The notes beneath the pieces were generated by a model that worked only from the letters and a program-made list of their open reading frames with translations, was not told where the DNA came from and searched no databases. Below, in pieces: positions 643 to 51,017 of a DNA stretch of 64,000 bases (positions are counted from its first letter, which is position 1; every line of letters begins with the position of its first letter). The stretch spans positions 5,235-69,234 of the forward strand of contig CAYOZJ010000002.1 of assembly GCA_964408485.1 (NCBI GenBank). Reading direction: 5' to 3'. Origin of the DNA: an uncultured Gammaproteobacteria bacterium. Its GTDB lineage: Bacteria; Patescibacteriota; Microgenomatia; Levybacterales; UBA12049. The position numbers and the translations under genes were made by a program.

Positions 643-2048
643 AAGACTCCTTTGATTACTCCACGTATCTCTCCCCTTTTACCATACGCTATGGATCTAA
701 AGAAATGCGATCTATCTGGTCTGAGGAGAATAGACGTATGCTTTGGAGGAAAGTCTGGGTTGCGCTAGCTAAAGCCGAATATAATGCAGGACTTATTAAC
801 AAAAAAGAATTAGCAGATATTATCTCCCACAAAGATGACATAGATATTGCAAAATCAAGAAAACGAGAGGAAAAAGTGTACCACGAGCTTATGTCTGAGA
901 TTCAGATTTTTTCTGAACAGTGTAAAATTGGTGGAGGAAAAATTCACCTAGGGGCAACGTCGACAGATATTTTAGACAATGCAACAGCACTGCAAGTACA
1001 TGAGTCTCTCATGCTAACAAAGAAAAATCTTAAACAAGTCCTTGCACTTTTTGCAGAAAAAATAAAGCAATACGAAAATACAGTCTGCATTGGTTACACC
1101 CATTTGCAGCCTGCAGAACCCACAACCTTGGGGTACAGATTTGCTTTTTATGCGCAGGATTTACTCTTGGACTTACAGACTCTTGAAAAACTTGAGCCAC
1201 TTATTAAGGGAAAAGGATTAAAAGGCGCTGTAGGAACTTCTGCAAGTTTTGAAGTACTTCTCAAAGATTCCAAAACATCTCCCGAGGAGTTGGAAAAAGA
1301 TTTTTTGGAAGAATTAGGAATTGATGCTGTTACCATTGCCAATCAAACATACCCAAGAAAAATGGATCTGCTTGTTGTTGAACTTTTAGCAAATATTGCA
1401 ACGAGTATTCATAAATTTTGTTTTGATTATCGAATTCTTCAGAGTCCGTTGTACGGCGAGTGGATGGAAAAGAGAAATTCTGAGCGCGTTGGGTCTAGTG
1501 CAATGCCGTTTAAAAGAAATCCAGATAGAGCAGAAAAAGTATGCTCCCTTTGTCGCTACGCGTCAGGATTTTTAACAGTTGCGTGGAGCAATCCTGCCAA
1601 CAGTCTCCTTGAAAGAACTCTTGATGACTCAGCATCGCAACGCCTTTTCTTACCCGAAGCTTTTTTGGCAATTGATGATTGTCTAAAAAATACAAAGATT
1701 CTTCTAGAAAATCTTGAGGTAAATACTTCTGCTGTTGAAAGAAATCTTTATACCTTTGGTCAATTTAGCGCAACCGAACCACTACTTATGGAGCTTGTTA
1801 GGAAAGGCGCAAATAGACAAGAAATGCACGAGATTATTAAATCAGCAAGCATGCAAGTCTGGCAGGCAAAAGAGATAGGACAAAATCTTTCCTTGTTTGA
1901 GATTTTAGGAAAAAACAAAATAATACTTTCTTATTTGTCTGCTAAAGAACTTCACCAATACGCATCCCCTACTTCTCATATTGGCTTGGCAAAAAAGCGG
2001 ACAAAAGCATTTCTTAGACAACTTGACAAATCAAGACATGACAAGTAA
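639..2048 (+). CDS. purB: adenylosuccinate lyase (fumarate-lyase superfamily)
   Basis: 469 aa. The N-terminus (MKDSFDYSTYLSPF...RYGSKEMRSIWSEENR) and GATSTDILDNATALQ match PurB-type lyases. Translationally coupled to purA. Confidence 0.85.
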   Translation: MKDSFDYSTYLSPFTIRYGSKEMRSIWSEENRRMLWRKVWVALAKAEYNAGLINKKELADIISHKDDIDIAKSRKREEKVYHELMSEIQIFSEQCKIGGGKIHLGATSTDILDNATALQVHESLMLTKKNLKQVLALFAEKIKQYENTVCIGYTHLQPAEPTTLGYRFAFYAQDLLLDLQTLEKLEPLIKGKGLKGAVGTSASFEVLLKDSKTSPEELEKDFLEELGIDAVTIANQTYPRKMDLLVVELLANIATSIHKFCFDYRILQSPLYGEWMEKRNSERVGSSAMPFKRNPDRAEKVCSLCRYASGFLTVAWSNPANSLLERTLDDSASQRLFLPEAFLAIDDCLKNTKILLENLEVNTSAVERNLYTFGQFSATEPLLMELVRKGANRQEMHEIIKSASMQVWQAKEIGQNLSLFEILGKNKIILSYLSAKELHQYASPTSHIGLAKKRTKAFLRQLDKSRHDK

Positions 2049-2299
2049 CGTAAAGTAATGAAAACATCAGAATCAGAAGGAACAGGAAGACTCTATATGT
2101 CAGACAGGTTAAGGGAAACACTCCAGAAATTAGCTCGTGATGGTCGCAGACATGGAGATTCATTAGCGATTGGTCAAGCAGAAACGGCGTTAGGTCAATC
2201 AACAGGAACATCAGTCCCAAAAAACAAGAGAAACAAACCAACAGTAAAACTTTCATAAATCTTCTTTTCAACAGTAATTTTCTTTAGTATTCTTTAAAT

Positions 2300-3820
2300 A
2301 TGCTTGCAAAAGTTATATCTGCGGCACTTGTTGGACTCGATAGCGTACCTATTGAAGTAGAGGTAGATATTGCTTCCCAAGGACTTCCTTCTTTCACTAT
2401 TGTTGGACTTCCGGATGAGGCTGTACGAGAAGCGAGAGAAAGAGTCCGATCTGCTTTAAAAAATTCAGGAGCAGATTTCCCTGCAAAAAGAATTACCGTT
2501 AATCTAGCTCCTGCTGATTTGCCAAAAGAAGGACCCAACTATGACTTGCCTATTGCCTTGGGCATTCTTATTGCATCTGGCCAATTACCCAATCTAGAAA
2601 AAAGCAGCATGGTACTTGGTGAATTAGCACTCGACGGAAGTGTGAGAAAAAGTCATGGCATTTTATCCCATGCACTTCTTGCAAGAGAAAAACATATCGA
2701 GCAACTATTCATTCCAACGCTCAATGCCGAGGAAGCATCCTGTATTGCAGGAATTGCTCTTTTCCCTGTGGATAACTTGGGGATATTAATGCGTCACGTC
2801 ATGGGACAAAGTCTTATTTCAGCTTATCCCTACAAGCCAATTGATACGTCCTCCTTTACCAAAAACTTTGACCACGACCTGCAGGATATTCAGGGTCAGG
2901 AAAAAGCAAAAAGAGCACTGGAAATTGCTGCGGCTGGTGGGCATAACATTCTTATGAAAGGACCTCCAGGAAGTGGCAAGACACTTCTTGCCCGAACATT
3001 AGCTTCTATTTTACCAACGCTTACTTTTCCGGAAGTTTTGGAATTAACGAAAATTTATAGTGCTACTGGCCTTAATCAAGATGGATTTGTGACAATTCGG
3101 CCTTTCAGAAGTCCCCACCATACAACATCTGCAATTGCTATTATTGGTGGCGGAAGCTATCCCAAGCCTGGAGAAATTTCTCTGGCCCATAGAGGAGTAT
3201 TATTTTTAGACGAACTTCCAGAATTCCCACGCATTGTTCTTGAATCACTCAGACAACCAATAGAAGATGGTGTTGTTACCATAGCTCGTGCTCAAGGAAG
3301 AGTTACTTTTCCTGCGAAAGCAATGATTATTGCGGCGCAAAACCCTTGTCCATGTGGATATCTTGGGGATAACTCGCGTGTATGTACCTGTAGCCCTGCG
3401 CAAATTATTCGCTATCAAAAGAAAATCTCTGGCCCACTTTTGGACAGAATTGATATCCATATTGAAGTTCCAAAAGTAGAAACAGGTAAATTAACTGCTC
3501 AACAGAAAGGAGAAAGCTCTGACTTAGTTAGAAACAGAGTCCAAAAAGCACGAGATAAGCAAACCACTCGATTTATCGGTACTCCTCTTTCAAGCAATGC
3601 AGACATGGACAGTAAAGACATAAAATTGTTCTGTGAACTTAATCAAGAATGTTTGGATATTCTCAAACGCGCAGTTGATATGTTTCATTTGTCTGCAAGA
3701 AGTTATTATCGAATAATCAAACTTGCCAGGACTATTGCAGATTTGGAAGAGAGTGATGAAATTAAACAAGAATATATTGCAGAAGCTTTACAATACAGAC
3801 CAAAACAAAACAGTTTATAA
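2300..3820 (+). CDS. comM: YifB/ComM family Mg-chelatase-like AAA+ ATPase
   Basis: 506 aa. YifB N-terminal domain (LVGLDSVPIEVEVDI...GLPDEAVREARERVRSAL), Walker A GPPGSGKT, Walker B LFLDELPEF and a C-terminal MCM-like region. Confidence 0.8.
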   Translation: MLAKVISAALVGLDSVPIEVEVDIASQGLPSFTIVGLPDEAVREARERVRSALKNSGADFPAKRITVNLAPADLPKEGPNYDLPIALGILIASGQLPNLEKSSMVLGELALDGSVRKSHGILSHALLAREKHIEQLFIPTLNAEEASCIAGIALFPVDNLGILMRHVMGQSLISAYPYKPIDTSSFTKNFDHDLQDIQGQEKAKRALEIAAAGGHNILMKGPPGSGKTLLARTLASILPTLTFPEVLELTKIYSATGLNQDGFVTIRPFRSPHHTTSAIAIIGGGSYPKPGEISLAHRGVLFLDELPEFPRIVLESLRQPIEDGVVTIARAQGRVTFPAKAMIIAAQNPCPCGYLGDNSRVCTCSPAQIIRYQKKISGPLLDRIDIHIEVPKVETGKLTAQQKGESSDLVRNRVQKARDKQTTRFIGTPLSSNADMDSKDIKLFCELNQECLDILKRAVDMFHLSARSYYRIIKLARTIADLEESDEIKQEYIAEALQYRPKQNSL

Positions 3821-3832
3821 CTCACTGAGGCT

Positions 3833-4156
3833 CTATTTACTTGAATCGGGTTGTTCAGAGAATCTCCAACGACCACCAAATCTTTTCCCCGTTGTAACTT
3901 CTCCTGAAGAGATTTCTTCTCCTCGTTGACCCTGAGCATCGAGAAGATACATTGAAGTAGATCCATCTCCCGCAACCATTTGAATTCCCTCTCCAGTTAC
4001 TTTTGTACCATCTGCTGTAACTGCTACAGCACTGCCTGGATATGAAGCTACAACTACTTTTTTAGCTCTACCTCTTGGTGAAAGAACCGCATAGCCCGTA
4101 TCGGGCAATTGTCTACCAAATGCTTTTAGACCGTAATCAACTCTTATAACTGACAT
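3833..4156 (-). CDS. hypothetical protein (Gly-rich, 107 aa)
   Basis: ORF only; no recognisable motif. Confidence 0.2.
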   Translation of the reverse strand: MSVIRVDYGLKAFGRQLPDTGYAVLSPRGRAKKVVVASYPGSAVAVTADGTKVTGEGIQMVAGDGSTSMYLLDAQGQRGEEISSGEVTTGKRFGGRWRFSEQPDSSK

Positions 4157-4214
4157 GATTGGTATTATAGTATGAAAATATTTTCAAGTCAACTCTACTG
4201 ATGCTCCATGGAGA

Positions 4215-4655
4215 TTATTCAAATGTGTGAAGACCCATGAGTTTTCTCATTTTCGCATCAATAACACGTTGTCCAACAGTCACGTCATGACGCGTCTGGG
4301 GAGATAAATTTAATTTAAGAATTTCCCTTGGCCCAAACCATTTACAAATTTTCCCGTCGCGAGATTGAGCAAGCGCTGTTTTAAGACTGGTTACCGGTGC
4401 ATAGGTAATAGAATAATTTTTACTCGCGTCTTCATTAAGATACGTATAGACTTCTTGAATTGTCTTAATAACAAGCTTTAATTGAAGGGTATTGCGAATA
4501 AGATCAGCAAATGTTGTTGCAGGATTGGCATCTTCTTCTACTTCTTCTGATTCAAAAAGAGACCAAGAAGGACTTATGGACTGGATTTGCTGCAGGAGAA
4601 TTTGATTACTAGGCTCGTGGTAGAGAAATCCGCTTACGTATAAACCTTTATGCAT
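4215..4655 (-). CDS. hypothetical protein (146 aa)
   Basis: ORF with good coding appearance; no motif recognised. Confidence 0.3.
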   Translation of the reverse strand: MHKGLYVSGFLYHEPSNQILLQQIQSISPSWSLFESEEVEEDANPATTFADLIRNTLQLKLVIKTIQEVYTYLNEDASKNYSITYAPVTSLKTALAQSRDGKICKWFGPREILKLNLSPQTRHDVTVGQRVIDAKMRKLMGLHTFE

Positions 4656-4973
4656 TCATCTCTACTATAGCACAAACCTGGCTAAGAAGTACGAAATGAA
4701 TTACTATAAACATTCTTTCTTGCCATTTTCTTACATTCAGCTTATAATAACTTCACTATGACAGATAAATTACATTGGACATCTCGTGGTACCGCGTATG
4801 CAAGTAAAGGAAACGTTGTTCGCCCTCGCATAGGATGGAATGGTCCAAGGATAAGGCCAATTGATTTTGGGAGAGTAGATTTTGCAGCAGATGAACCAGT
4901 TGATCAATCTAGACTACCAAATAATGTTGATGCTGCATTTGCTTCTCCTAGAAAAAAACGATTTGTGCCTGAT

Positions 4974-5987
4974 TTAGGATAACTTTCCCTTCCCTTTTTT
5001 ACCCAAATGTTCGTACGCAGTATCTGTAACCATTCTTCCTCTGGATGTTTTTTTAAGAAATCCCAACTGCATGAGAAATGGCTCAATCATATCCTCAAGG
5101 GTATTGCTGTCCTCAGAAAGAGTGGATGCAAGCGTTTCTATACCAACTGGTCCACCATTATGAAAGTCTATAATTGTTGTTAGGAAGCGAATATCTGATT
5201 TATCAAGTCCTTTGTTATCAATTTCTAGCATAGTTAACACTTCATGGATAATTCCATCTGTCACCTTCCCTTTTCCTTTAACCTGAGCAAAATCCCGAGC
5301 ACGTTTGAGAAGCTTAAGAGCAATACGAGGCGTACCCCGAGACCTTTTAGAGATTTCCTTAAGACTCTCTTTATCTATTTCCATTTCCATTTTCTCACTT
5401 GCCCTTTGAATAATTTTTTCGAGCTCTAAAGGAGAGTAGAATTCAAGTCTATGTGTAAGACCAAATCTGTCCCGCAAAGGACTAGAGAGCGCTCCTGCTT
5501 TGGTTGTTGCACCAATAATAGTAAACTGTGGTAAATCAAGCCGTAGAGTACGTGCTGCAGGTCCTTTCCCTATGACTATGTCTAAGGCATAATCTTCCAT
5601 TGCCGGATACAATACTTCCTCAACTACTTTGTTGAGTCTATGAATTTCATCAATAAAAAGGATGTCTCCTTTTTCCAGATTTGTCAGAATTGCTGCCAAA
5701 TCTCCTGCTCGCTCTATTGCAGGACCAGATGTTACACGAATATTAGCTCCCATTTCCTTCGCAATTAAATGAGCAAGAGTTGTCTTTCCAAGACCAGGAG
5801 GTCCGTATAAAAGTACATGCTCTACTGCTTCCTCCCGCTTTTTTGCAGCCTGAATCGCAATAAGGAGTGCTTCTTTAACTGTTTCTTGTCCAAAAAATTC
5901 ATCCCAATTACCTGCGCGAAGACTAACCAGTAGCTTTTCTTCTTCGGGAGTTGATTCTAATTCTTTTTCAATAAGTGGCTCACTCAT
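4974..5987 (-). CDS. ruvB: Holliday junction branch-migration helicase RuvB
   Basis: 337 aa. Walker [13 protein letters not shown], Walker [11 protein letters not shown] and the RuvB C-terminal winged helix. Confidence 0.9.
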
Positions 5988-6098: not shown

Positions 6099-6662
6099 TC
6101 ATTTTCCAAGGTATTTTAGCGCTAATTTTATTTTTTCCTCTGTTGTCTTCCCTTTTTCTCCAACTTCTCTCACTGCTTTACGTGCTTCATCTGTATTAAA
6201 TCCAAATTGTGTTAATGCGCTAACCACATCTGACTCTCCTTCTGCTAAATCTAGCTCTTCCACAGCTCCCAATTTATTCTTTAGCTCAATAATAATTTTT
6301 TGTGCATTCTTTTTACCTAGTCGCGGTACTCCAGTAAAAAAGTCCACATCTGCCTTTCGAATTGCCTGCAAAATCTCGTCTTTTTTACCTAAGGCAAATA
6401 CGTTAATTGCTGTTTTTGGCCCAACTCCATTGACACTAATTAATAGCTCAAACAGCTCAAGAGATGCTTCGTCTTCAAATCCATAGAGCTCAAGCGCATC
6501 TTCCCGAACATGAGTATGAATATACACAGTCAAAGAATCTCCAATATGAAACTTTTGCAAAATATCATGCGATCCGTAGACTTTATATCCAACCCCATTT
6601 ACATCAATCAGAAGATATGGATCATGTCGAGAAAGAAGTTTGCCGGACAGATAGCCAATCAT
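6099..6662 (-). CDS. ruvA: Holliday junction DNA-binding protein RuvA
   Basis: 187 aa. MIGYLSGKL...IDVNGVGYKV N-terminus and HhH motifs (GVGPKTA). Confidence 0.85.
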   Translation of the reverse strand: MIGYLSGKLLSRHDPYLLIDVNGVGYKVYGSHDILQKFHIGDSLTVYIHTHVREDALELYGFEDEASLELFELLISVNGVGPKTAINVFALGKKDEILQAIRKADVDFFTGVPRLGKKNAQKIIIELKNKLGAVEELDLAEGESDVVSALTQFGFNTDEARKAVREVGEKGKTTEEKIKLALKYLGK

Positions 6663-6674
6663 AAAGTTATTCGA

Positions 6675-7232
6675 TTATAACACGAAGGGAATGAGCATTT
6701 TTGTGCGTAATTGATAGTCTGTATATTTCTTTCCAAAATGCGCTACAAGCAGTGTTTCTTCCTTCTTTGCTTGAAGAAAAAATGGGATAAAGAAAAAAAG
6801 AAAAGATATCCATAACCAACTTCCCATAAGAAGTTCCATTCCTACATAACTCACAACAAATCCCGCGTAGATAGGATGACGAACAATTTTATATACACCG
6901 CTTGTTACTAATTTTTGTTTTGGCGTTACTCGGGAAGCTGCAGCATATACCCATAGATTGCCCAACTGTCTCTTTGCAGCAAATGCTCCCACTACACCAA
7001 TAACGACCAATAAAAACCCCGCAACAACTACCCATATATCCTGGTGCATTGGAAAAATATTTTTCTTACCAAAAAGCTGGGTGGCAATAAGAAAAAGCAA
7101 AAACGCTTCTGCACATTGAGAAAATACTACCCATTTCCATTTTTTCTCTTGAATGGTAAGCGATAACCCGATCCAATAAGAAAAGCGGAGAAAAAGAAGA
7201 ATAAATCCTGTAACTTGCAATAATTCACGCAT
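6675..7232 (-). CDS. isoprenylcysteine carboxyl methyltransferase (ICMT)/phospholipid methyltransferase-like membrane protein
   Basis: 185 aa polytopic protein. The C-terminal RHPIYAGF...E motif is characteristic of the ICMT/PEMT family. Inserted between ruvA and ruvC. Confidence 0.5.
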   Translation of the reverse strand: MRELLQVTGFILLFLRFSYWIGLSLTIQEKKWKWVVFSQCAEAFLLFLIATQLFGKKNIFPMHQDIWVVVAGFLLVVIGVVGAFAAKRQLGNLWVYAAASRVTPKQKLVTSGVYKIVRHPIYAGFVVSYVGMELLMGSWLWISFLFFFIPFFLQAKKEETLLVAHFGKKYTDYQLRTKMLIPFVL

Positions 7233-7701
7233 ACTTTTTACTCACCGCATGAGTAAGGGCAACTGCTAATGCATCAGCTGTATCGTCTGGCTTTGGAACC
7301 TCTGCTAATTTAAGCTGCAGCTTTACCATTTGCCCAACTTGTTTTTTATCTGCCTTACCATATCCTGTTACTGCAGATTTTACCTGTGATGGTGTATACA
7401 CAAAAACATCAAGATTTTTCTGTGATGCTGCCAATAACACCACTCCCCTTGCCTGTCCGACGCTAAATGCAGTAGATACATTTTTGGCAAAAAAAAGGTC
7501 TTCAATAGAGAGCGTATCAGGCTTATATTCATCGATAATCCGGCACACCTCATCATAAATGGCATAAAGCCTACCGGGAATATCTGATTTTGGCTCTGTT
7601 TCTACACACCCAAACCCATACACTTTAAAAGATACTCCTGATTTTTCTATAACTCCCCATCCCATTCTTCCAATACCAGGATCTATGCCTAAAATCTTCA
7701 T
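7225..7701 (-). CDS. ruvC: crossover junction endodeoxyribonuclease RuvC
   Basis: 158 aa. MKILGIDPGIGRMGWGV, catalytic Asp/Glu positions and the RuvC resolvase fold. Confidence 0.9.
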   Translation of the reverse strand: MKILGIDPGIGRMGWGVIEKSGVSFKVYGFGCVETEPKSDIPGRLYAIYDEVCRIIDEYKPDTLSIEDLFFAKNVSTAFSVGQARGVVLLAASQKNLDVFVYTPSQVKSAVTGYGKADKKQVGQMVKLQLKLAEVPKPDDTADALAVALTHAVSKKYA

Positions 7702-7795
7702 AAAACGTAAAACTAAAAGTGAAAAACTAAAAATAAAAGCACTTTATTTTACGCTTTGCGCTTAACACTTTTAGCTTACTTATACTAACGTACAT

Positions 7796-7824
7796 TTGCA
7801 TTCAAAACAAGCTTAACGTATAAT
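7796..7824 (+). promoter_or_regulatory. sigma70-like promoter for rplY (TTGCAT-17-TATAAT), 7 nt before ATG (leaderless-type)
   Basis: -35 TTGCAT at 7796..7801, a 17-bp spacer, -10 TATAAT at 7819..7824, and ATG at 7832. Confidence 0.4.
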
Positions 7825-7831
7825 AGCTTTT

Positions 7832-8536
7832 ATGAAGAGAACTAGCCTCCCAGTTGCCAAAAGAAGTGTCTTTGGCAAGAAAGTAAAAAAACTCCGAAAA
7901 TCTGGTACTCTTCCTGGTAATGTATACGGCAAAGAATTAAAATCTATTGCTGTTGAAATGCCAACAAAGGAATTTTTAGCTGTATTTAAAGAAGCAGGAC
8001 ATTCTGGCGTTGTTGACTTAAAATTAGGTGAGGAAGTTATTCCAACTCTCGTCCATGAAGTAACATACGATCATATTAATGATATTCCACTTCATGTTGA
8101 TTTCTATAAAGTTAACCTTAAAGAAAAAGTAAAAGCAACCGTACCCGTTGTCCTGATTGGCGAACCTACAGCTGTTACTGAAAAACTTGGACTTTTGCTC
8201 CAAAACTTAAATGAAGTTGAAGTTGAGGCTCTTCCTACAGACTTACCTGAAAAAATTGAAATTGATGTTACCCACTTGGCGCAAGTTGGCGATATGGTAA
8301 AAGTTGCAGACATGAAAGTTGCAGGAGATGTAGCTATTATGGCTGACATGGAGCAAGAAGTTGCCAAAATTGCAGAGCTCGTGAGTAAAGAGGCAGAAGA
8401 ACAAGCAGCAGCAGAAGCAGCTGAGGCCGAAGCAGCAAGTACAGAAGGCGGAGAAGCGCCAGCAGAAGGCGAAACAGCAGGACAAGAATCAGGAGAAGCT
8501 CCTGCAGAACCTGCAGCTGAAGAGAAAAAAGAATAA
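7832..8536 (+). CDS. rplY: 50S ribosomal protein L25/general stress protein Ctc, with acidic Ala/Glu-rich C-terminal tail
   Basis: 234 aa. The N-terminal L25 fold (RSVFGKKVKKLRKSGTLPGNVYG...) and the Ctc-type β-barrel C-domain. The tail is low complexity (EAEEQAAAEAAEAEAAS...). Confidence 0.8.
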   Translation: MKRTSLPVAKRSVFGKKVKKLRKSGTLPGNVYGKELKSIAVEMPTKEFLAVFKEAGHSGVVDLKLGEEVIPTLVHEVTYDHINDIPLHVDFYKVNLKEKVKATVPVVLIGEPTAVTEKLGLLLQNLNEVEVEALPTDLPEKIEIDVTHLAQVGDMVKVADMKVAGDVAIMADMEQEVAKIAELVSKEAEEQAAAEAAEAEAASTEGGEAPAEGETAGQESGEAPAEPAAEEKKE

Positions 8537-8626
8537 CCTCATCCTTTACCTTCTAACCTCCGAGCTAATTCCTGACGCATTTCTTTAAGAGAAAATCCAC
8601 TGGATTTTGACTCTCTTTTTAGAAGT

Positions 8627-9112
8627 TTAAATGAAGTTTTTAATAATTGGGCTCACTAGAGCAGTAAAATCTTTTGCGTACATTGCTATTGAAAATCGCC
8701 TATCGCCTGCATTAAAAACAATTTTCTCATTCTTAAGAAGAGTCGCATCTACATACACATCCAGACCAAATAGATTGCCAAATGGTGGTACGCCTCCAGG
8801 CACTACGCCATTGGTAATTCTGTATACTTCGTCTTGCGTTGCAAATCGTATTTCCTTTGCATCGGTCACTGATTTTACCCTGCTACTAGATAGTCTTCTA
8901 TCTCCAGGCAAAACACACATAATAAATTTCTTTTCTCCATTTCTCAACTTTGCTTTGAGAATGAGTGCTTTTGCACCTTGGGAAATTGAGTATCCATGAC
9001 GAAGCTTGGCTGCCTCCTCACTTGTCCGCACTTCCTCATGCTCAAACGTTTCATACCAAACTCCTTTTTCTCTTAAGAGCTCTTGAATTGCTGTAACCAA
9101 TTGGTGATACAT
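8627..9112 (-). CDS. YbaK/ProX-family aminoacyl-tRNA deacylase (trans-editing)
   Basis: Start moved to the Met at 9112 so it does not overlap the upstream gene. YbaK-like core (…LPGDRRLSSSRVKSV…GGVPPFG…). There is a 1-nt gap to the upstream CDS, so the two are likely co-transcribed. Confidence 0.6.
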   Translation of the reverse strand: MYHQLVTAIQELLREKGVWYETFEHEEVRTSEEAAKLRHGYSISQGAKALILKAKLRNGEKKFIMCVLPGDRRLSSSRVKSVTDAKEIRFATQDEVYRITNGVVPGGVPPFGNLFGLDVYVDATLLKNEKIVFNAGDRRFSIAMYAKDFTALVSPIIKNFI

Positions 9113-9113
9113 A

Positions 9114-9602
9114 TTATTTTTGAATAAATCTGGCTGTTTTAACGCTTTTTCGACACTTTTCCCATGGAAAGATTTTCCCACTCATTGCAATATACACACC
9201 TTTTCCTAAAAAATCTATTGCCCCCACTGCGATTCCAATATTAAATGGTGCATCTGAATCCAGAAATCGCTCAGGAATAAGTGCCCCAGTAAGAACAATT
9301 GTCTTTTTCAGACCACATAAAACTTCTGCCGTTTGCACCATGGTGTCTGTTCCATGTGTAATAATAATCTTTTCTATGCTACTTTTCTCACATACTTTTC
9401 TGATTTTCTCTCTGTCTTTTTGTGTTATATCTAAGCTATCTTTTTGTAAAAGTGGCACAATTTCATAGCTAAATCCAGGTTTCACTATTTTTAGAACTCT
9501 CTTAACAGCAGGGTCAGCTATCTCGAATGCATAGCTTTTTATTTTCTTGGGGTAATCTTTATCGATTGTCCCACCTGTTTGAATAAATAATATTTTTGCC
9601 AT
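9114..9602 (-). CDS. L-asparaginase/glutaminase family protein, N-terminal catalytic domain only (162 aa)
   Basis: FIQTGGTIDKDY (TGGTI threonine motif) and IITHGTDTM (HGTDT motif) are asparaginase N-domain signatures. The C-terminal domain is absent. Confidence 0.6.
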   Translation of the reverse strand: MAKILFIQTGGTIDKDYPKKIKSYAFEIADPAVKRVLKIVKPGFSYEIVPLLQKDSLDITQKDREKIRKVCEKSSIEKIIITHGTDTMVQTAEVLCGLKKTIVLTGALIPERFLDSDAPFNIGIAVGAIDFLGKGVYIAMSGKIFPWEKCRKSVKTARFIQK

Positions 9603-9646
9603 AAAAAAATCCCTTCCACATTACCTGCTTTGGTAATATGTAAGGG
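9603..9646 (-). terminator. intrinsic terminator immediately 5' of the asparaginase-like ORF (attenuator of the T-box-like leader)
   Basis: Minus strand reads CCCTTACATATTACC-AAAGCA-GGTAATGTGGAAGGG, a 15-bp stem with one mismatch, followed by ATTTTTTT and then ATG. Confidence 0.6.
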
Positions 9647-9798
9647 CGTATTATCGCTGTACCACCTTACTTTTATCTCAAGTGCTCCGTTACCGACACA
9701 CTTTTGTTCTATTACGGGAACTTCCCGACTGGTTCTATTTATCCCGCTCAGCGGGACGTTCTTCCAGTTAGCTCCGGACGTTACTCCATCTTCGCTCT
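9603..9798 (-). promoter_or_regulatory. putative T-box riboswitch leader (tRNA-sensing transcription attenuator)
   Basis: Promoter TTGACA (9828..9833)-17-TATACT (9805..9810) lies on the minus strand, followed by a roughly 190-nt leader. The T-box-like sequence AAGUAAGGUGGUACAGCG (9655..9672) matches 15 of 18 positions of the AAUUAGGGUGGNACCGCG consensus. GUAAGG can pair with CCUUAC, the 5' half of the terminator (antiterminator helix A1). The 7-nt bulge UGGUACA matches the canonical UGGNACC. Confidence 0.4.
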
Positions 9799-9835
9799 TG
9801 TTATAGTATAGCTTTTAAGAAAATGGCTGTCAAAC

Positions 9836-10348
9836 TCATAAAAATTCAAGTTTTTTCGCAGGTTCGTAATTAGGATCAATTCGTAACGCCTTACCTAAGT
9901 ATTCTTTTTCTTTCCCTCTATCCCCTAATCGATATGCCAAAACAGCAGCCTGAAAATATGCGTCCCTATATCCTGGATATTTTTGCGCAACACTTTCCCA
10001 TGTCTGCATTTGGCTATTTAATGTCTGTCTTTGTGCTACAACCTGCCGCAAATCATTACTTTTTTCAATTAAACCAATTATCTGCCAGAGCGAGACAACC
10101 CCAAGAATACTAATAAAGGCAATAAGAAGAATGGTCTTTGGAGAAAAGGTAAGATTTGATAAGGATTCGGGAATGTTACGGGGAATATTCGGTAATTTAA
10201 TCTTCTTAGACTGCTCTTTTGGAAAAGGCTGCACATTTGTTTCCTCTACTAAAATAACTTGAGCTCGTTTAATATATTTTCCCCGAGGTTTTCCCGACTT
10301 TTTACCGACCCTTTCATTATTCTTGGTAAAGAAGCGCTTTTTAGCCAT
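9836..10348 (-). CDS. membrane-anchored TPR-like repeat protein (hypothetical)
   Basis: 170 aa. Basic N-terminus, one TM helix (ILLIAFISILGVVSLWQIIGLI) and a C-terminal TPR-like helix pair (AYFQAAVLAYRLGD...ALRIDPNYEPA). Confidence 0.4.
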   Translation of the reverse strand: MAKKRFFTKNNERVGKKSGKPRGKYIKRAQVILVEETNVQPFPKEQSKKIKLPNIPRNIPESLSNLTFSPKTILLIAFISILGVVSLWQIIGLIEKSNDLRQVVAQRQTLNSQMQTWESVAQKYPGYRDAYFQAAVLAYRLGDRGKEKEYLGKALRIDPNYEPAKKLEFL

Positions 10349-10357: not shown

Positions 10358-12628
10358 CTATGCTTTTGGCCAAGAAGTGACAATAAGAGGCTTATCTGAT
10401 ACTTTCATTTGGGAATAAATCTCCTCTGTTACAAACGGCATAAATGGGTGCAAGAGCTCTAAAATAGTTATATAGATATTCGCAAGTACTGTGTAGGAAT
10501 TCTCATCCACCCTTTCTTTTACTTCTTCTATGTACTTATCTGCAAATGTGTGCCAAGCAAATTCATAAAGCCTTTCTGCTGCTAAATTGAATTGATATTT
10601 TTCTAAATATTGAGTGATTTCTCGCACAAATGTTTTTGTCTCCTCAACCATATCTTTATCTGCCTGAGAAACAGCAAACGAACTTAATTCATGCAGCTCA
10701 ATTTTCTTTAGCTCTCCCATTCCTTCTGGTTTTTTCATTTCCAAAAATCTGGCCATATTCCACAGCTTATTGGTAAATTTTCGTGCAGCGTCAAGTTTTG
10801 CATAACTCATTGCCTGGTCATTTCCAAGTCCTGTCCCATATACCAAAGCAAATCGCACGCTATCTGCGCCATACTGATCGGCAACTTCCAACGGATTAAC
10901 AACATTTCCCTTTGATTTACTCATTTTCTTACCCAACGGATCATTTACGAGTCCGTGGAGCACAACATCTCGAAACGGAACGGTCTTTTTAAGTTTTTCT
11001 ATGTCTGTTTCGTGCTTACCGTTAGCAACATAAAGTCCAAGCAAAAGCATACGGGAAACCCATGCGCGCAAAATATCATATCCTGTCTCCATAACCGATG
11101 TTGGATAGAATTTTTCAAAATCTCCAGGCTTACTTGTTCTGAGCGTTACGTACGGCCATTGACCTGAAGAAAACCACGTGTCAAAGGTATCTGTTTCTGG
11201 TAAATACTGCTTACCCTTTTCTTTTTGATCTTCAAAAACAACTTTGGCTGTAATTGGCGCAACGATAGCCTGAAGTCCTGAAAGAATTTCCTCAAATGAA
11301 TGCCTCTCGAGTGCTTCCTCAAGCGTCCCTTTTGTGTGCCGTTTTTCTTTATTAATGAATGAAACAGTAAATTCTTTTGGAGAATGCACCTCATACCATA
11401 CAGGAATTTGAATTCCCCAGACATTTTGTCTAGAAATATTCCAGTCCCTAAGTCCGCCGTACCATTGCTTAAGTATTGTCACAAAATTCTGTGGATATAT
11501 TTTAACCAATCCACTATTTACTGCCTTTTCTGCATTCTCAATAAGTGGCTTTACTTTTACATACCATTGTTCAAGAGGAAGTGGTTCTAAAACAGTTTTA
11601 CATTTGTAACAAATCTTGATAACCATATGGTGCGGTTCTGTTTTTTCTAGAAGTTTTGCCTCCTCTAAGCGTTTAACAATTTCTGTTCGTGCTTGCTTTA
11701 CATAAAGCCCGTCTAAAATTCCCTTTGTATTTACCATTTTCCCATCGAATCCAATAATTGGCGGGTAGGATAATTTGTGTTTTTTTGCTATATCAAAATC
11801 ATTAAAATCATGAGCGGGAGTTACTTTTACTGCGCCCGATCCAAACTTAGGGTCCACATAATCATCTGCAATAATAGGAATCTCTCTTTCAACAAATGGT
11901 AAAATAACAGTTTTACCAACAAGTTTTTTGTATCTCTCGTCTGTTGGATTTACCATTACCGCTACATCTCCTACAAACGTTTCTGGGCGAGTAGTAGCAA
12001 TAGTAATAAATCCGCCATCTTTTAAAGGAAACTTTATGTAATACAAAACTCCTTCTCTTTCCTCACTTACTGCTTCCAGATCTGAAAAAGATGTTCCATC
12101 TCGTGTACAATAATTAACTAATCGATAATCGCGGTAAATAAGCCCATCGTTATACATTTTACGGAATGTATCCTTAACAATTTCAACAATATCTGGATCT
12201 AAAGTAAATTTTTCTCTACTCCAATCTAGTGAAAATCCAAGTCTTTTAAGTTGTTTTTGAATTCCTCCCCTATTTTCCTGTACATACTCCCAGATATGCT
12301 TAAAAAGTTCGTCGCGGGAAAAATCAAAGCGGGACTTTCCATCAAGTTGTAATTTTTTTTCATATACAAATTGTGTTTCTGTTCCTGCATGATCTGTGCC
12401 TGGCAACCAAAGTGCACTATCTCCAAGCATTCGATGGTAACGGATAAGAATATCTTCGACAACAAACATTGCATGACCAAAATGCAAATCTCCATTGGCA
12501 TTAGGAGGAGGAAGAATAATTGAATACGGTTTTCCATCAGGATTTGTCTCAGGCTGAAAGTATCCACCCTCTTCCCAATTTTTATAGATTTTTTCCTCTA
12601 CTAATGTATGGTCATATACTTTTTCCAT
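10358..12628 (-). CDS. valS: valine--tRNA ligase
   Basis: Class I HIGH (PPPNANGDLHFGHAM) and KMSKS (KMSKSKGN) motifs. RDWNISRQNVWGIQIPVWY matches the ValRS editing-domain junction. The start is set at the second ATG (MEKVYD), which sits 6 nt after a TATAAT. The ORF tracker extends to 12646. Confidence 0.85.
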   Translation of the reverse strand: MEKVYDHTLVEEKIYKNWEEGGYFQPETNPDGKPYSIILPPPNANGDLHFGHAMFVVEDILIRYHRMLGDSALWLPGTDHAGTETQFVYEKKLQLDGKSRFDFSRDELFKHIWEYVQENRGGIQKQLKRLGFSLDWSREKFTLDPDIVEIVKDTFRKMYNDGLIYRDYRLVNYCTRDGTSFSDLEAVSEEREGVLYYIKFPLKDGGFITIATTRPETFVGDVAVMVNPTDERYKKLVGKTVILPFVEREIPIIADDYVDPKFGSGAVKVTPAHDFNDFDIAKKHKLSYPPIIGFDGKMVNTKGILDGLYVKQARTEIVKRLEEAKLLEKTEPHHMVIKICYKCKTVLEPLPLEQWYVKVKPLIENAEKAVNSGLVKIYPQNFVTILKQWYGGLRDWNISRQNVWGIQIPVWYEVHSPKEFTVSFINKEKRHTKGTLEEALERHSFEEILSGLQAIVAPITAKVVFEDQKEKGKQYLPETDTFDTWFSSGQWPYVTLRTSKPGDFEKFYPTSVMETGYDILRAWVSRMLLLGLYVANGKHETDIEKLKKTVPFRDVVLHGLVNDPLGKKMSKSKGNVVNPLEVADQYGADSVRFALVYGTGLGNDQAMSYAKLDAARKFTNKLWNMARFLEMKKPEGMGELKKIELHELSSFAVSQADKDMVEETKTFVREITQYLEKYQFNLAAERLYEFAWHTFADKYIEEVKERVDENSYTVLANIYITILELLHPFMPFVTEEIYSQMKVSDKPLIVTSWPKA

Positions 12629-12643
12629 ATTTTTATTATATCC

Positions 12644-12673
12644 CAAAAATGAAAAAACCGCCTAGGAGGCGGT
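12644..12673 (-). terminator. intrinsic terminator between the regulator gene and valS
   Basis: Minus strand reads ACCGCCTCCTAGGCGGT, a 6-7 bp stem with a 3-nt loop, followed by TTTTTTCATTTTT. Confidence 0.5.
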
Positions 12674-25678: not shown

Positions 25679-27019
25679 ATGACGCAACCGCTAGACGCTA
25701 TTTGGACCACTGTTTTGTCGGGAATAGAAAAAGAAGTATCTCGAGCTAATTTTTTGACTCTTTTCAAGCAAACTGCACTCATTTCTTTTGATGAGGGGAT
25801 CGCAACCGTTGCCGCACCCTCAACAATGGTTATTGACCTTCTCCAGAAGCGTTTCTTACCAATCATAAAACTTGCCTTAGAAAAAGAATTCAAACAAGAC
25901 GTAGATGTACTTTTTGTTACAAAAACCTTTACCTCTTCTCAAAAAGAGCAAGACACACCGCTTTTTACAAATACTCAGACTACGACCAAACCTCTCATCG
26001 GTCATTTACCCCGAGTAAGACCCGATTTTACCTTTGAAACACTTGCTGTCTCGGACTCAAACCGCTTAGCATACGAATCTTCCAGAAATGTTGCTAAAAA
26101 TCCTGGCAAATCATATAACCCGCTTTTTATTTACGGTCCTGTGGGAGTAGGCAAAACCCACCTTATGCAAGCAGTCGCTAACGAGGTTTATTCACAAAAT
26201 CCCGACAACAAAATCATTTACATAACGAGTGAAGAATTTACCAATGAAGTGGTTGAGGCAATTCGCTCCAATGACACAGCTAAAATGAAGAGGCGTTTCC
26301 GCTCGGCTAATTTGCTTATCATTGACGACGTGCAATTTATCGCAGGAAAAGATAGGGTCCAAGAAGAGCTGTTTCATACTTTTAATAGCCTTATTGACGG
26401 CGGGGCACAAATTGTATTGTCATCAGACAGACCGCCAAGCGAAATCAAAAAGCTTGAAGCGCGACTTTCGTCTCGTTTTGCAGGCGGACTGACTGTTGAC
26501 GTTGAGGCACCGGATTTTGAATTGCGAACAGCAATTGTTTTAAAAAAAGCAGAAAAGGTTGGCTTTGCCATATCGATTGACGCAGCAAAAATTTTAGCTG
26601 AAAAAGAGCAAGACGTGAGATCTCTTGAGGGGATGCTCCTTCGTGTTGCAACACTTTCCAAGGGGGGAGACCTACATGAAAGCGAAATTCGTCGCATGCT
26701 GGGTTCTGCAGATCTGGACAACAAAACTCATGCAATTCATGCAGACGACCTGATTGATGCAATATGTCAATTTTATAATGTCAAAACAACGCAGCTAAAG
26801 GGACCGAAGAGGGACGCTTCGCTTGTTAAAGCTCGTCAAATTGCCATGTATCTTCTTAAGCACGAATTGGGTCTTACGCTTGTTGAAATAGGAAATATCT
26901 TGGGTGGACGGGACCATACCACCGTAATGCACGGTGTGGATAAGATGGCACATCTTGTGGAAAAGAAGGGATTTTTGTCTGAGGAAATTGTGGGGATAAA
27001 AAACAGGATTAGGGGATAA
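25679..27019 (+). CDS. dnaA: chromosomal replication initiator DnaA
   Basis: 446 aa. Walker [11 protein letters not shown], Walker [10 protein letters not shown], and the C-terminal DNA-binding signature KARQIAMYL...TL.EIG...GGRDHTTV.H. Confidence 0.95.
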
Positions 27020-32287: not shown

Positions 32288-34078
32288 CTATTTTGCGCTC
32301 TGTCCGGTCTCTGTTGGTGACAAGCTGGCATGCTGGTTTTGCATTTTTTGAAGTTCTTCTGGATCTGAGGTAATAATATTATGCTCAAAAGGTGCAGCAA
32401 CAATTTGAATGGCAACGTGATTCTGTCCTGCAAAGAAGAGTCCTTGGCCAACACCGGATGAGAGAAGCATTTGTCTTTCGCCATCAGATAGATAGAATGT
32501 TTTCGCGACCGTGTCAATTTCTGAGGTACTCTGCTTTAAAAGAATCTGTATAGAGCTGTTAGAAAGAATTGCGCGACCATAATCACTTGAAAGGAAATCT
32601 TGTACGTCTTGAGTCGCTGTAGTGAGTCCTAGATAGTATTTACGAGCCCTTTTGGCAATGCTGTACATAAAGGATGCAGAATCTTCATGTTTCATTAAGT
32701 ACCATGCCTCATCAACAATAAGTAAGCGTTTTTTTAAAGATTTTCTGACACGAGTCCACACAAAGTCTAAGAGAATATGCATTGCAATGGGTCTAAGTTC
32801 GTCTTCCAAGTCCCGAAGAGAAAAAATCGTGAGAGGATTTGTGATATTGAAATTCGATTGTTGGTTAAAAATGCCAGAAAGACTGCCGGTGACAAATTTT
32901 TCCAAACGGAGGGCAATGTTTTGTGCTATTGGATCCTGTGTTTTTACTAATCTCTGATACAAATCCTGCAAAATAGGAGGCGTTTTTGTCTGGCTTGCCG
33001 GATCTGCAGTAATTCCCTTATCTGCATATGTTTCAACAAGTGCTCTGTCCAAAATTGCATCTTCAGCAGGATTAACTGCACCAAGCATGATTTTTAAAAG
33101 TGCTCGGATAGAAAGGATCTTAAGTCCTAATTCGTTTTCTCCTTCTTCATAGACTCCTGATAAGTCAAATGGATTAATTCTCACAGGACTTGTTGCTGAG
33201 AAATTCAAATATTCTCCCCCTAAGCTCTCTGCGAGCTTGCCGTATTCACTTTCAGGATCAACAACAATAACTTCTGTCCCAAACATAAATTGGCGCATGA
33301 TTTCAAGCTTAATGCTAAAGGATTTACCTGATCCTGATTTTCCAAAAACAACTTCGTTAGCATTCTCTAAAGAGTATCTGTCAAAAATAATAAGTGAGCC
33401 ATTTTGTTGATTTACGCCGTACAAAATGCCTTTGTCTTGCGTTAAGGTAGCAGAGGTAAAAGGAAATGTCGATGCGAGACTAGATGTGTCCATGTTGCGT
33501 GTAATCGACAATTTGTCTTGTCCAATCGGTAGCGTTGTTTTAAATCCCTCCTCCATCTGAAGCGTTGCTGGTTTTGCTGTTACTAAAAGAGAGGAGAGCG
33601 TGCTGGTCAATTTTTTAGTTGCTTGTTCTAGTTCTGCGCTGTCTGTTGATGAGAGGGCAATGTAAAGACTAAATTGAAAAAACCGTTCTATTCCTTTTGC
33701 CAATTCTGCCTGGAGTCCAAGGGCGTCAGAAAGTGCTGCTGCAACTTTGGGATTTTCTGGTTTCCCTTTTTCTTCATCGCTTGACATTGTTGCTTCCATC
33801 TCGGCGATTTTGCGCTTTAAATTAGACAACACATCATCAGTAAAAATTGGATAGACAAACATACTAATTGCTAGAGAGTGATCAAAATCAATAACAGGGG
33901 ATAGCCACCCGACTGATACATATCGAGGGTAGCCAGAAACAAAAAATGTTCTGTAGAAATGATTACCGACACGAATCGTCTTAAAGTCTACCTCAACTTT
34001 TGTTGGGGCAATAGCATCTGCTGCATTGCCGGCTCCCTCAATAGATACTTCTTTAGATTTTTTAGTAAAAAGCGCCAT
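32288..34078 (-). CDS. virB4: VirB4/TrbE/CagE-family type IV secretion ATPase
   Basis: 596 aa. Walker A VFGKSGSGKSF, Walker B LLIVDEAWYLM, and the GLTTATQDVQDFL motif. Short, Gram-positive-like length. Confidence 0.85.
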   Translation of the reverse strand: MALFTKKSKEVSIEGAGNAADAIAPTKVEVDFKTIRVGNHFYRTFFVSGYPRYVSVGWLSPVIDFDHSLAISMFVYPIFTDDVLSNLKRKIAEMEATMSSDEEKGKPENPKVAAALSDALGLQAELAKGIERFFQFSLYIALSSTDSAELEQATKKLTSTLSSLLVTAKPATLQMEEGFKTTLPIGQDKLSITRNMDTSSLASTFPFTSATLTQDKGILYGVNQQNGSLIIFDRYSLENANEVVFGKSGSGKSFSIKLEIMRQFMFGTEVIVVDPESEYGKLAESLGGEYLNFSATSPVRINPFDLSGVYEEGENELGLKILSIRALLKIMLGAVNPAEDAILDRALVETYADKGITADPASQTKTPPILQDLYQRLVKTQDPIAQNIALRLEKFVTGSLSGIFNQQSNFNITNPLTIFSLRDLEDELRPIAMHILLDFVWTRVRKSLKKRLLIVDEAWYLMKHEDSASFMYSIAKRARKYYLGLTTATQDVQDFLSSDYGRAILSNSSIQILLKQSTSEIDTVAKTFYLSDGERQMLLSSGVGQGLFFAGQNHVAIQIVAAPFEHNIITSDPEELQKMQNQHASLSPTETGQSAK

Positions 34079-45721: not shown

Positions 45722-45810
45722 TCACAAGTTGTCGCTGCGGCGACCCTCGCGATCCCGCCTCCCTCGCTTTGCTCAGTCCGGCATTCGAATCCCGAGAATT
45801 AATAATCTAG

Positions 45811-45898
45811 CGGAGAGGACGGGATTCGAACCCGTGATGCTCTTGCGAACATACACGCTTTCCAAGCGTGCGCACTAGACCAACTATGCGACCTCTCC
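45811..45898 (-). tRNA. tRNA-Ser (anticodon GGA)
   Basis: Hand-folded. Acceptor GGAGAGG/CCTCTCC+G, anticodon arm CACGC-TTGGAAA-GCGTG, a long variable arm, T-loop TTCGAAT. No encoded CCA. Confidence 0.8.
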
Positions 45899-45908
45899 TT
45901 GTCGAAAA

Positions 45909-46337
45909 CTACATTATCTGTTTTATTTTCTGTTGTGCTTCTTGCCAGACCTTTTTGTCTCCTGTAAATGTTAATCTTTTTTCTACTTCAATTTCTGGTA
46001 GCCATTCAACCTTTTCCATTTCCCATCCATGATCTGCTACATCTCCGGACTCGTATCTCATTAGAAAATATTGAACTCGTTTGTGGCGTTTTTCCCCTTC
46101 GAAACTATACCAAAAGGCAATTGGAGACAGTTTTTCTAAAATCTTACCGGTTATTCCTGTTTCTTCCTGTACCTCTCGAATTGCTGCTTCTTCCGGTGTC
46201 TCGCCCTGAATAGTATCTCCAACATGACCTTTTGGGAAAACCCATCCATGATGTCCCGAATGCTGAGAAACAAGAATGGTCATATTGCCATTTTGTAACC
46301 AAAAAACTATTCCTCCAGCTGAAAATTCTTCTTTCAT
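45909..46337 (-). CDS. NUDIX hydrolase
   Basis: 142 aa. NUDIX box GHVGDTIQGETPEEAAIREVQEETGI. Confidence 0.8.
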   Translation of the reverse strand: MKEEFSAGGIVFWLQNGNMTILVSQHSGHHGWVFPKGHVGDTIQGETPEEAAIREVQEETGITGKILEKLSPIAFWYSFEGEKRHKRVQYFLMRYESGDVADHGWEMEKVEWLPEIEVEKRLTFTGDKKVWQEAQQKIKQIM

Positions 46338-46424
46338 TATCAGTATTCTAAAAGGTAAATATCAAGAAAATAGCCTTAATATATCCTAGAATAGCCTTGC
46401 TATTATACCGTATTTATATTTAGC

Positions 46425-46913
46425 TTGCAGGAAGGAATGAAAATGAATTATAGTAACAATATGGATATGCAAGAAGAAGTGAAGCTAGTGGAGAAAGAAT
46501 TGGTTGAGCTTATTATCGAGCACCTTAAGGTGAATCGTATTGCTGTGGAGACTGCTCGTCAGCAAGCAAAGGATTTTTTAGCACTTTTACCAATCAATGA
46601 TCAGAAAGATTTACTTAGCAAACTAAAAGGACTTTCTGAGAAATATGAAGAAGCAAAAGAAGTGTATGCTGTGGAAATTGGAAAAGTGTATGAAGGAGCA
46701 CGTATACAGGCACTTGGGCAAATGAGAAATTATATTCAAGCGGGCAACATGGATGCAGCAATTGCAGCTGCAAAATCTCTTTACCCGCAAAAACAAGAAG
46801 ATCAACAGCAACCAGGGGAATCATCAGCCCCAGTTGTAAATCAGCAAGATGCTCAGCAAGTTCCAACGCAAGAAATAAGCGTTCAGCAATTAGAACAGAA
46901 AGGAAGTGCTTAA
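46425..46913 (+). CDS. hypothetical coiled-coil protein
   Basis: 162 aa, helical, Gln-rich C-terminus. Overlaps the next ORF by 8 nt. Confidence 0.4.
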   Translation: MQEGMKMNYSNNMDMQEEVKLVEKELVELIIEHLKVNRIAVETARQQAKDFLALLPINDQKDLLSKLKGLSEKYEEAKEVYAVEIGKVYEGARIQALGQMRNYIQAGNMDAAIAAAKSLYPQKQEDQQQPGESSAPVVNQQDAQQVPTQEISVQQLEQKGSA

Positions 46914-48909: not shown

Positions 48910-48911
48910 TG

Positions 48912-48985
48912 CGTCCCCGGGCAGATTTGAACTGCCGATCTTCAGGTTCGGAACCTAATGCTCTATCCAACTAAGCTACGAGGAC
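48912..48985 (-). tRNA. tRNA-Arg (anticodon CCG)
   Basis: Hand-folded. Acceptor GTCCTCG/CGGGGAC+G, anticodon loop TTCCGAA, T-loop TTCAAAT. Confidence 0.75.
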
Positions 48986-48998
48986 AGATATTTGAGGG

Positions 48999-49088: not shown

Positions 49089-49093
49089 CTATG

Positions 49094-49166: not shown

Positions 49167-49214
49167 ATGAAAGTAGGAGTATTATACCTGATTTAGACCA
49201 TATGGAGCAAAAGA

Positions 49215-50999: not shown

Positions 51000-51017
51000 A
51001 GTGCTAGTATATCACTC

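Follow-up and report, generated by a model that had tools for sequence, protein, structure and literature searches.

A leader on the minus strand of contig CAYOZJ010000002.1, at positions 9833..9603 of the 64-kb stretch analysed here (the window, in which all coordinates are given unless another locus is named), precedes an operon for a short-chain asparaginase (scASNase) and a YbaK-like protein. On the evidence of sequence comparison, this leader can be assigned with high confidence to the T-box riboswitches. It very probably senses the charging of tRNA-Asn (anticodon GUU) and controls the operon mainly by transcription antitermination. A sequence-only reading of the same DNA had placed a T-box attenuator ahead of an asparaginase/YbaK operon, and this was borne out by an alignment to the Rfam T-box model RF00230, by a score of 126 bits with a covariance model built for the class, by covariation, and by a coherent regulon related to Asp and Asn. 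What was observed is a set of sequence elements, their covariation, the terminators, the content of the regulon and a tRNA match at one locus; from these we infer the mode of tRNA binding, antitermination, an indirect route to Asn-tRNA in this genome and the substrate of the deacylase. What appears to be new is the combination of an architecture resembling that of Class III T-boxes, previously associated with actinobacterial ileS and translational control, with terminator coupling, specificity for Asn or Asp, and hosts that are apparently members of the Candidate Phyla Radiation (CPR). The elements of the locus are as follows.

9805..9833, minus strand: sigma-70-type promoter, with the -35 box TTGACA at 9833-9828, a 17-nt spacer and the -10 box TATACT at 9810-9805
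9770..9796, minus strand: ultrashort Stem I, 27 nt in all, delimited from the sequence, the comparison of leaders and the class model
A9796-U9770, G9795-C9771 and C9794-G9772, minus strand: C-stem of Stem I, covarying across 23 leaders
9793-9789, minus strand: GAA-GA resembling a kink-turn (K-turn), opposite GA at 9774-9773; the strands in the window are GAAGAU opposite GGA
9787-9785 with 9778-9776, minus strand: 3-bp helix GGA/UCC of Stem I, also covarying across the 23 leaders
9784-9779, minus strand: apical loop of Stem I, GUAACG, 6 nt
9780..9782, minus strand: specifier AAC (Asn), followed by the purine G9779
9728..9768, minus strand: Stem II, with a proximal helix ACUGG/CCAGU, an internal loop and a distal 7-bp hairpin
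9763-9759 opposite 9740-9733, minus strand: internal loop of Stem II, the purine string AAGAA facing AAAUAGAA
9706..9727, minus strand: Stem IIA hairpin CGGG-AAGUU-CCCG, whose loop GUU can pair with AAC at 9708-9706 (IIB pseudoknot)
9681..9702, minus strand: Stem III, capped by a GUAA (GNRA) tetraloop
9672-9655, minus strand: T-box core AAGUAAGGUGGUACAGCG
9640..9670, minus strand: antiterminator, with helix A1 GUAAGG (9670-9665)/CCUUAC (9645-9640), bulge UGGUACA (9664-9658) and helix A2 GCG/CGC
9603..9646, minus strand: intrinsic terminator, a 36-nt hairpin (9646-9611) and U7 (9609-9603)
9114..9602, minus strand: short-chain L-asparaginase of 162 aa, RrA family (PF00710)
8627..9112, minus strand: YbaK/ProX-superfamily deacylase-like protein of 161 aa (PF04073)

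The open reading frame (ORF) upstream of the leader, of 170 aa, stops at TGA 9838-9836 of the minus strand, and TTGACA follows directly. The TTGACA-17-TATACT promoter of the sequence-only reading is thus present, matching the sigma-70 consensus at 11 of 12 positions. The leader was expected to be roughly 190 nt long, which agrees with the ∼196 nt that run from a presumed transcription start near 9798 to 9603, the ATG lying at 9602; when its folding was compared with that of shuffled sequences a z of -3.9 was obtained. Its 3′ part displays the general features of a T-box, namely the T-box sequence, an antiterminator with a 7-nt UGGN bulge and a mutually exclusive terminator. The core had been said to match the T-box consensus, as it does, and it lies within the end-to-end alignment to RF00230. 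The proposed pairing of GUAAGG with the 5′ half of the terminator, leaving the 7-nt bulge UGGUACA, was also recovered, the UGGU of this bulge being the pairing partner of the tRNA 3′ NCCA. The terminator, described beforehand as 15 bp long with U7 abutting the start codon, was found to span 15 positions, of which 14 are paired and one is mismatched (-19.7 kcal/mol), and the SD-like (Shine-Dalgarno-like) GGAAGGG lies inside its 3′ arm, at 9617-9611, with ATG 9602 abutting the U-run. Since the 5′ arm of the terminator overlaps the 3′ strand of the antiterminator, the two are mutually exclusive, and as the antiterminator alone reaches -6.7 kcal/mol, against -19.7 kcal/mol for the terminator, the default state should be OFF.

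When the 64-kb window was scanned with RF00230 at its gathering score (93 bits), no T-box match was found. A sensitive scan of the 351-nt region 9550-9900 gave, in contrast, a full-length alignment (model positions 1-219) with 37.8 bits and an E of 4.3e-7 for 351 nt. The RF00230 check therefore had a mixed outcome, and the low score has a single cause: 6 nt stand in for 78 Stem I positions of the model, while the elements from Stem II through IIA/B and Stem III to the antiterminator are all aligned. The rule put forward with the sequence-only reading, that the lack of a cmsearch match would leave a mere terminator, would misfire here, since a true T-box scores 37.8 bits against the 93 demanded. 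The same holds for the relatives described below: when 22 members were scanned (the window, locus L001 and 20 class loci), none reached the gathering score, so regulation by this class is invisible to standard annotation of CPR genomes.

Related leaders were reached by two routes. The closest genome relative of the 162-aa protein, at L001, has the same leader (49.1 bits with RF00230) and was the only one of 80 genome loci reached through asparaginase homologs to carry it; in four further look-ups of such homologs the leader appeared in L081-L084 and L087 only, L081 carrying the same leader as the window. A DNA pattern based on the shared IIA/B and T-box cores yielded 120 metagenomic loci, mostly ordinary long-Stem-I T-boxes of gut bacteria, which served as an outgroup, together with ∼20 distinct loci that share the design of the window leader, the promoter lying directly before the first helix. 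Altogether, 22 further leaders of this design were collected, in unrelated gene neighbourhoods. A covariance model built from 20 leaders finds a single copy in the window (9797-9639, 126 bits); its scores fall into three cleanly separated ranges, of 126-167 bits for members, 81-91 bits for a sister group and 23-55 bits for ordinary T-boxes. L087, which was reached via its protein and stands outside the training set, scores 126.9 bits and differs exactly at the sites that the pattern had fixed (CCCGAAAC in IIA, and A2 = GUUC/GAAC).

Covariation was assessed across 23 leaders. Standard pairs occupy 98.2% of the cells, compared with 84.6% after shuffling and at most 49% in slid registers, and 23 of the 36 pairs have changed on both sides (shuffled mean, 12.6). 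None of 500 shuffles reached the observed values on any measure. The signal is seen in every variable helix: in the C-stem and short helix of Stem I, in helices 3 and 4 of Stem II (compensatory changes in 7 of 8 pairs), in helix 6, which is Stem III (6 of 9 pairs), and in helix 7, which is A1. In the internal loop of Stem II, where AAGAA faces A-N-UAGAAC, both AAGAA and UAGAAC are near-invariant among members; in the window this loop (GAAGAAC / AUAAAUAGAA) corresponds to the S-turn region of RF00230.

The main peculiarity of the class lies in Stem I. All members have a C-stem of 2-3 bp and a K-turn signature (5′ NNNGAN, 3′ NGA), followed by a helix of 3-5 bp and an apical loop that was parsed as mostly 5-7 nt long, with up to 8 nt in one member. 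In the related leaders the -10-like box lies as close to the 5′ side of the first helix as it does in the window, which leaves no room for a long Stem I. In register, all 23 leaders have just one triplet in common, which reads AAC in 16 of them and GAC in 7, the next base being always A or G; as only [A/G]AC plus a purine has been kept in register, the specifier of the window leader is read as AAC 9782-9780. An Asn triplet in an internal loop had been suggested beforehand: the amino acid was right but the triplet was not, since the real one lies in the apical loop of Stem I. The candidate specifiers in AUAAAUAGAA and GAAGAACGU were discarded, since these sequences face each other across the internal loop of Stem II, which is no specifier loop. 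Folding aimed at Stem I, a specifier and a K-turn thus recovered a K-turn and an apical-loop specifier, though no long Stem I exists. The leader accordingly lacks the Class I long Stem I, internal specifier loop and distal platform, and has instead the short Stem I of Class III, which lacks a distal motif and bears the specifier in an apical loop of five or six nucleotides. A K-turn at the base of Stem I, a Stem II S-turn and a IIA/B pseudoknot are also present, these three-dimensional motifs being predicted from sequence.

A match between the specifier and a cognate tRNA was seen at one locus other than the window. In L151, a leader with a GAC specifier and a UGGC bulge lies upstream of aspS, and the next gene on the same strand is a tRNA-Asp (GUC) with G73, so that both pairings fit. 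All 23 leaders carry AAC or GAC, and the bulge differs between the two sets: UGGC is found in the seven GAC leaders, none of which has UGGU, while UGGU is found in 6 of the 16 AAC leaders (the window, L091, L123, L138, L159 and L180). This hints that, in some of these lineages, the discriminator of tRNA-Asn may differ from that of tRNA-Asp.

The genes behind the leaders were assigned by family scan and blastx. Counting the window, the first gene after the leader is:

14 leaders: non-discriminating aspartyl-tRNA synthetase (ND-AspRS; NF003483, 496-520 bits, cutoff 353)
1 leader: bacterial-type AspRS
3 leaders: aminotransferase resembling aspartate aminotransferase (AspAT), with an archaeal-type phosphoenolpyruvate carboxylase (PEPC) behind it confirmed in two (TIGR02751, 458 bits)
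4 leaders: short-chain asparaginase
1 leader: no recognisable target (L208, in which a terminator is missing as well)

The asparaginase of the window had been taken for half an enzyme. It is instead, by family membership, a complete short-chain enzyme of the RrA type: it aligns with PDB 8UOO over residues 7-159 (E=1.1e-33; PMC10949315), with TIDKDY and HGTDT conserved, and has the length of the N-domain alone, the catalytic Thr, Tyr and Thr-Asp, and the signature Lys in TIDKDY. Short-chain asparaginases of this family are active tetrameric enzymes (PMC10949315), and the family of the 162-aa protein is large and spread over many phyla. The YbaK-like gene begins at ATG 9112, one base 3′ of the asparaginase stop codon, and not at GTG 9181; the 161-aa product in the database is 100% identical to the window protein over the queried residues. 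This protein belongs to the superfamily through PF04073 only, as it scores 62.2 bits with TIGR00011, the equivalog for the Cys-tRNA(Pro) deacylase YbaK (cutoff 153), and its best solved relative is 3OP6, an uncharacterised protein. The YbaK-like gene ends the operon in the window, in L081 and in L180.

Two loci link this protein to Asp metabolism. In L001, a 621-aa ORF (3528-5393) consists of a bacterial-type AspRS (NF001750, 604 bits) followed by a C-terminal YbaK-like domain (residues 477-618), which shares 42% identity with the free-standing protein of the window (E=1e-35); this fusion points to a putative trans-editing activity working with AspRS. The region 1149-6908 of L215/L216 is syntenic with 6099-9800 of the window (T-box operon, L25, RuvC, a PEMT-like gene and RuvA). 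Its YbaK-like protein is 79% identical to that of the window and its gene is kept at the end of the operon, while AspAT and archaeal-type PEPC take the place of the asparaginase; one Asp-producing module has therefore been exchanged for another.

These features suggest the following mechanism. Transcription would start near 9798, and the K-turn and ultrashort Stem I would present AAC in the 6-nt apical loop. Stem II, whose internal loop is rich in purines, would come next, then the IIA/B pseudoknot and Stem III, and no distal platform is there for the tRNA elbow. If it behaves like the Class III ileS T-boxes of known structure, the RNA would grip the anticodon stem-loop of the tRNA between Stem I and Stem II. 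Pairing of the 3′ end of an uncharged tRNA with UGGU would stabilise the weak antiterminator, allowing the polymerase to enter the operon; otherwise the stronger terminator would form and transcription would stop at U7. Because the SD-like GGAAGGG is occluded by the same part of the terminator that takes part in the switch, translation is probably gated too. It would be paradoxical for a sensor of Asn to turn on an enzyme that breaks Asn down, unless tRNA-Asn receives Asp; such charging is suggested by the AAC leaders that precede ND-AspRS and by the alternation of AAC and GAC within each target class. Uncharged tRNA-Asn would then report a shortage of Asp, to which the asparaginase would respond by making Asp from Asn. 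Both the Asp-supply logic and the transcriptional mode are proposed with good confidence.

The transcriptional mode has to be set against a purely translational T-box like those of Class III ileS, in which the 9646-9611 hairpin would sequester the SD and the U-run would be incidental. The architecture is that of Class III, whose members are mostly translational (PMC10482949), and in the window, as in a subgroup of leaders like it, the ATG directly follows the U-run and the SD-like sequence, here in the 3′ arm of the hairpin, pairs with the segment that the antiterminator would capture. However, the hairpin with U7 is a canonical intrinsic terminator, and an equivalent one, a GC-rich hairpin of -15 to -39 kcal/mol over the 3′ strand of the antiterminator with U5-U8 after it, occurs in 21 of the 22 related leaders. 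At least 10 of these place the SD and start codon outside the hairpin, 15-40 nt past the U-run, so that it cannot sequester them; the switch in these leaders must therefore be transcriptional. Exclusively translational control is thus unlikely, although translational gating added to transcriptional control is plausible at the window locus. A reading in which the T-box is real but senses tRNA-Val is less probable still. The loop GUAACG also contains GUA followed by A, valS (10358-12646) is located 600 nt upstream, and the A73 that is the usual discriminator of tRNA-Val would be a perfect partner for UGGU. Nevertheless, the first two loop positions vary among leaders (GU, GC, CA, CU, CC, AA, UC, UU, AU) while only [A/G]AC is kept; the closest syntenic relative has the loop GCAACG, the regulated genes are all related to Asp or Asn and none to Val, and valS is a separate upstream gene with a promoter-like site of its own. 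GUA was consequently rejected as the specifier on the register comparison. That the structure merely terminates the upstream 170-aa gene and resembles a T-box by chance would agree with the missing RF00230 match at the gathering threshold, but this explanation was effectively refuted, and has a negligible probability, given the full-length RF00230 alignment, the 22 homologous leaders in unrelated neighbourhoods that covary in every variable helix, and the near-consensus promoter between the upstream stop codon and the structure.

Several points weigh against a T-box that senses tRNA-Asn charging. The window score of 37.8 bits is far under the curated Rfam threshold. Most members were retrieved with a pattern that fixes the IIA/B and T-box cores, so that invariance there is an artefact of ascertainment; this explains in part why IIA, IIB and most of A2 do not vary, and covariation is uninformative on IIA and IIB. 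The alignment used for the pair counts had been fitted to the class model, although a raw MAFFT alignment shows the same pattern. The tRNA-Asn of bacteria usually has G73, with which a UGGU bulge would form a G-U wobble and no Watson-Crick pair, and no tRNA-Asn gene was found in the window or in the 41 loci searched. No aspS, asnS or gatCAB turned up in the window in a partial scan, by tblastn with AspRS and related queries or by a Pfam search that covered 10 of the 26 large ORFs, so that the indirect pathway is a presumption for this genome. In addition, the leader was absent from all three of the Lloydbacteria, Liptonbacteria and ACD_24 genomes with a homologous ND-AspRS, its distribution therefore being patchy. 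Finally, tRNA binding and antitermination at the window leader are themselves predictions from its sequence.

Among known systems, the nearest is the Class III T-box, found upstream of actinobacterial ileS, mostly translational and endowed with a short Stem I (PMC10482949), in which units of a short Stem I and Stem II depend on the K-turn (PMC7583486). The solved examples, from Nocardia farcinica and Mycobacterium tuberculosis (PMC10482949, PMC7583486), share with the window class a short Stem I without the double T-loop motif that binds the elbow, an apical loop of 5-6 nt in which a purine follows the specifier, a basal K-turn, a purine-rich loop of the S-turn type in Stem II, the IIA/B pseudoknot, Stem III and the UGGN bulge. 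The typical Class III context (ileS, Actinobacteria, translational) is not, in contrast, that of the window class, which reads Asn or Asp and not Ile, has a canonical intrinsic terminator instead of an SD sequestrator, targets an Asp-supply regulon and apparently belongs to CPR/Patescibacteria. With Class I T-boxes (RF00230; for instance B. subtilis tyrS) it shares Stem II, IIA/B, Stem III, the T-box sequence, the antiterminator with a 7-nt bulge, the mutually exclusive terminator with its U-run and an OFF default, though not the long Stem I with internal specifier loop and distal platform. The Asn/Asp T-boxes of Firmicutes (aspS, asnS, tRNA-dependent Asn pathway) resemble it in that uncharged tRNA-Asn or tRNA-Asp induces enzymes that make Asp-tRNA, but they have a canonical long Stem I. 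C. acetobutylicum has an operon for ND-AspRS, GatCAB and AsnB. One aspS copy of this species is under T-box control (PMC2494555).

A literature search found no asparaginase, AspAT-PEPC pair or YbaK-like deacylase reported as a T-box target and no paper tying T-boxes to CPR lineages, though Sherwood et al. 2015 may hold terminator-type or non-ileS ultrashort examples; the short-Stem-I model of TBDB was run only on Actinobacteria and on matches to the standard model with a truncated Stem I. The RrA-type scASNases (PDB 8UOO series; PMC10949315) resemble the window protein in length (∼160-170 aa), in homology to the N-domain of class 1 asparaginases, and in the catalytic Thr, Tyr and Thr-Asp and the family-specific Lys of TIDKDY; they differ from it in that the window gene is under predicted T-box control, for which the same search found no scASNase precedent. 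Free-standing YbaK/ProX trans-editing deacylases (PF04073) likewise consist of a single tRNA_edit domain of ∼160 aa, but the window protein falls below the YbaK cutoff (62 versus 153 bits) and is genomically tied to AspRS and Asp supply, not to ProRS.

Transcriptional T-boxes are generally held, on a kinetic argument, to need the elbow-binding motif of a long Stem I in order to catch the tRNA quickly enough, ultrashort Stem I structures being assigned to translational switches (PMC7583486, section 6.2; PMC10482949). A terminator-type family with a 27-nt Stem I would be a counter-example, and offers minimal test RNAs of ∼160 nt both for this argument and for engineering. In a broader reading, which is put forward tentatively and is somewhat less probable than not, a hitherto undescribed CPR lineage of minimal terminator-coupled T-boxes without elbow contact would switch freely between tRNA-Asn and tRNA-Asp as reporters of Asp charging, with a regulon that includes a YbaK-family deacylase along with AspRS. 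If this were so, the AspRS-linked deacylase would have a novel trans-editing activity, with mis-acylated tRNA-Asp or tRNA-Asn among its conceivable substrates; its co-regulation and fusion with AspRS provide a functional lead for an uncharacterised YbaK/ProX subfamily. The amino acid economy of CPR genomes is poorly understood, and the regulon indicates that both Asp supply and the tRNA-dependent route to Asn are under active control in them.

Concerning the hosts, L001 is labelled by its submitter as a Patescibacteria group bacterium, and the names given by submitters to homologs of the YbaK-like protein or ND-AspRS include Dojkabacteria, Collierbacteria, Pacebacteria, Uhrbacteria, Lloydbacteria and Liptonbacteria, one close relative being labelled Eisenbacteria; the leader class is thus apparently hosted by CPR/Patescibacteria, to judge by sequence homologs. 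The contig of L138, on which a class member (AAC, UGGU) lies upstream of ND-AspRS, also carries a complete bacterial 16S rRNA gene (1444-2898, minus strand, 1453 bits) that could place the class taxonomically.

Other leaders were noted in the course of the search. The sister group (L093, L103, L120, L145 and L170; for example L170 221-377) consists of short-Stem-I T-boxes (81-91 bits) with a 9-nt loop AAAGAUUCC, in which the specifier might be GAU or AUU, a UGGU bulge and terminators; they lie upstream of genes whose ∼130-aa products (MSPEIK.NG...) are of unknown function. Two more weak T-box matches occur in L170, at 8115-8306 and 2846-2981. A weaker match in L217/L218 (3894-3672, minus strand, 25 bits with the class model) lies upstream of a pair consisting of Lyase_1 and argininosuccinate synthase; its Stem I, UCUAU-[CGCA]-AUAGA, shows CGC (Arg) followed by A in the apical loop, and its bulge is UGGU. 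Short-Stem-I T-boxes of other specificities may therefore exist in these genomes, and such hints, of Arg and other specificities, leave room for the short Stem I as what may be a general T-box design there. The class member of L208 (1179-1338, GAC loop, 133.7 bits) directly follows a tRNA-His gene. Neither the 3′ strand of A1 nor a terminator can be recognised in it, no gene related to Asp lies downstream, and it may represent a degenerate copy or a chimera created during assembly.

Elsewhere in the window, five tRNA-Ser and two tRNA-Arg genes lie within 45810-51800, beside a tmRNA gene (52821-53221). One of the former (51587-51672, minus strand) was called by ARAGORN as tRNA-Ser with anticodon ACU, which is unusual in bacteria. 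Two ORFs with TraG P-loop/AAA_10 and TrbL/VirB6 domains (32288-34078 and 43839-45647, minus strand) suggest a module resembling those for conjugation or type IV secretion. DnaA is encoded at 25679-27019, and the window may lie near a replication origin.

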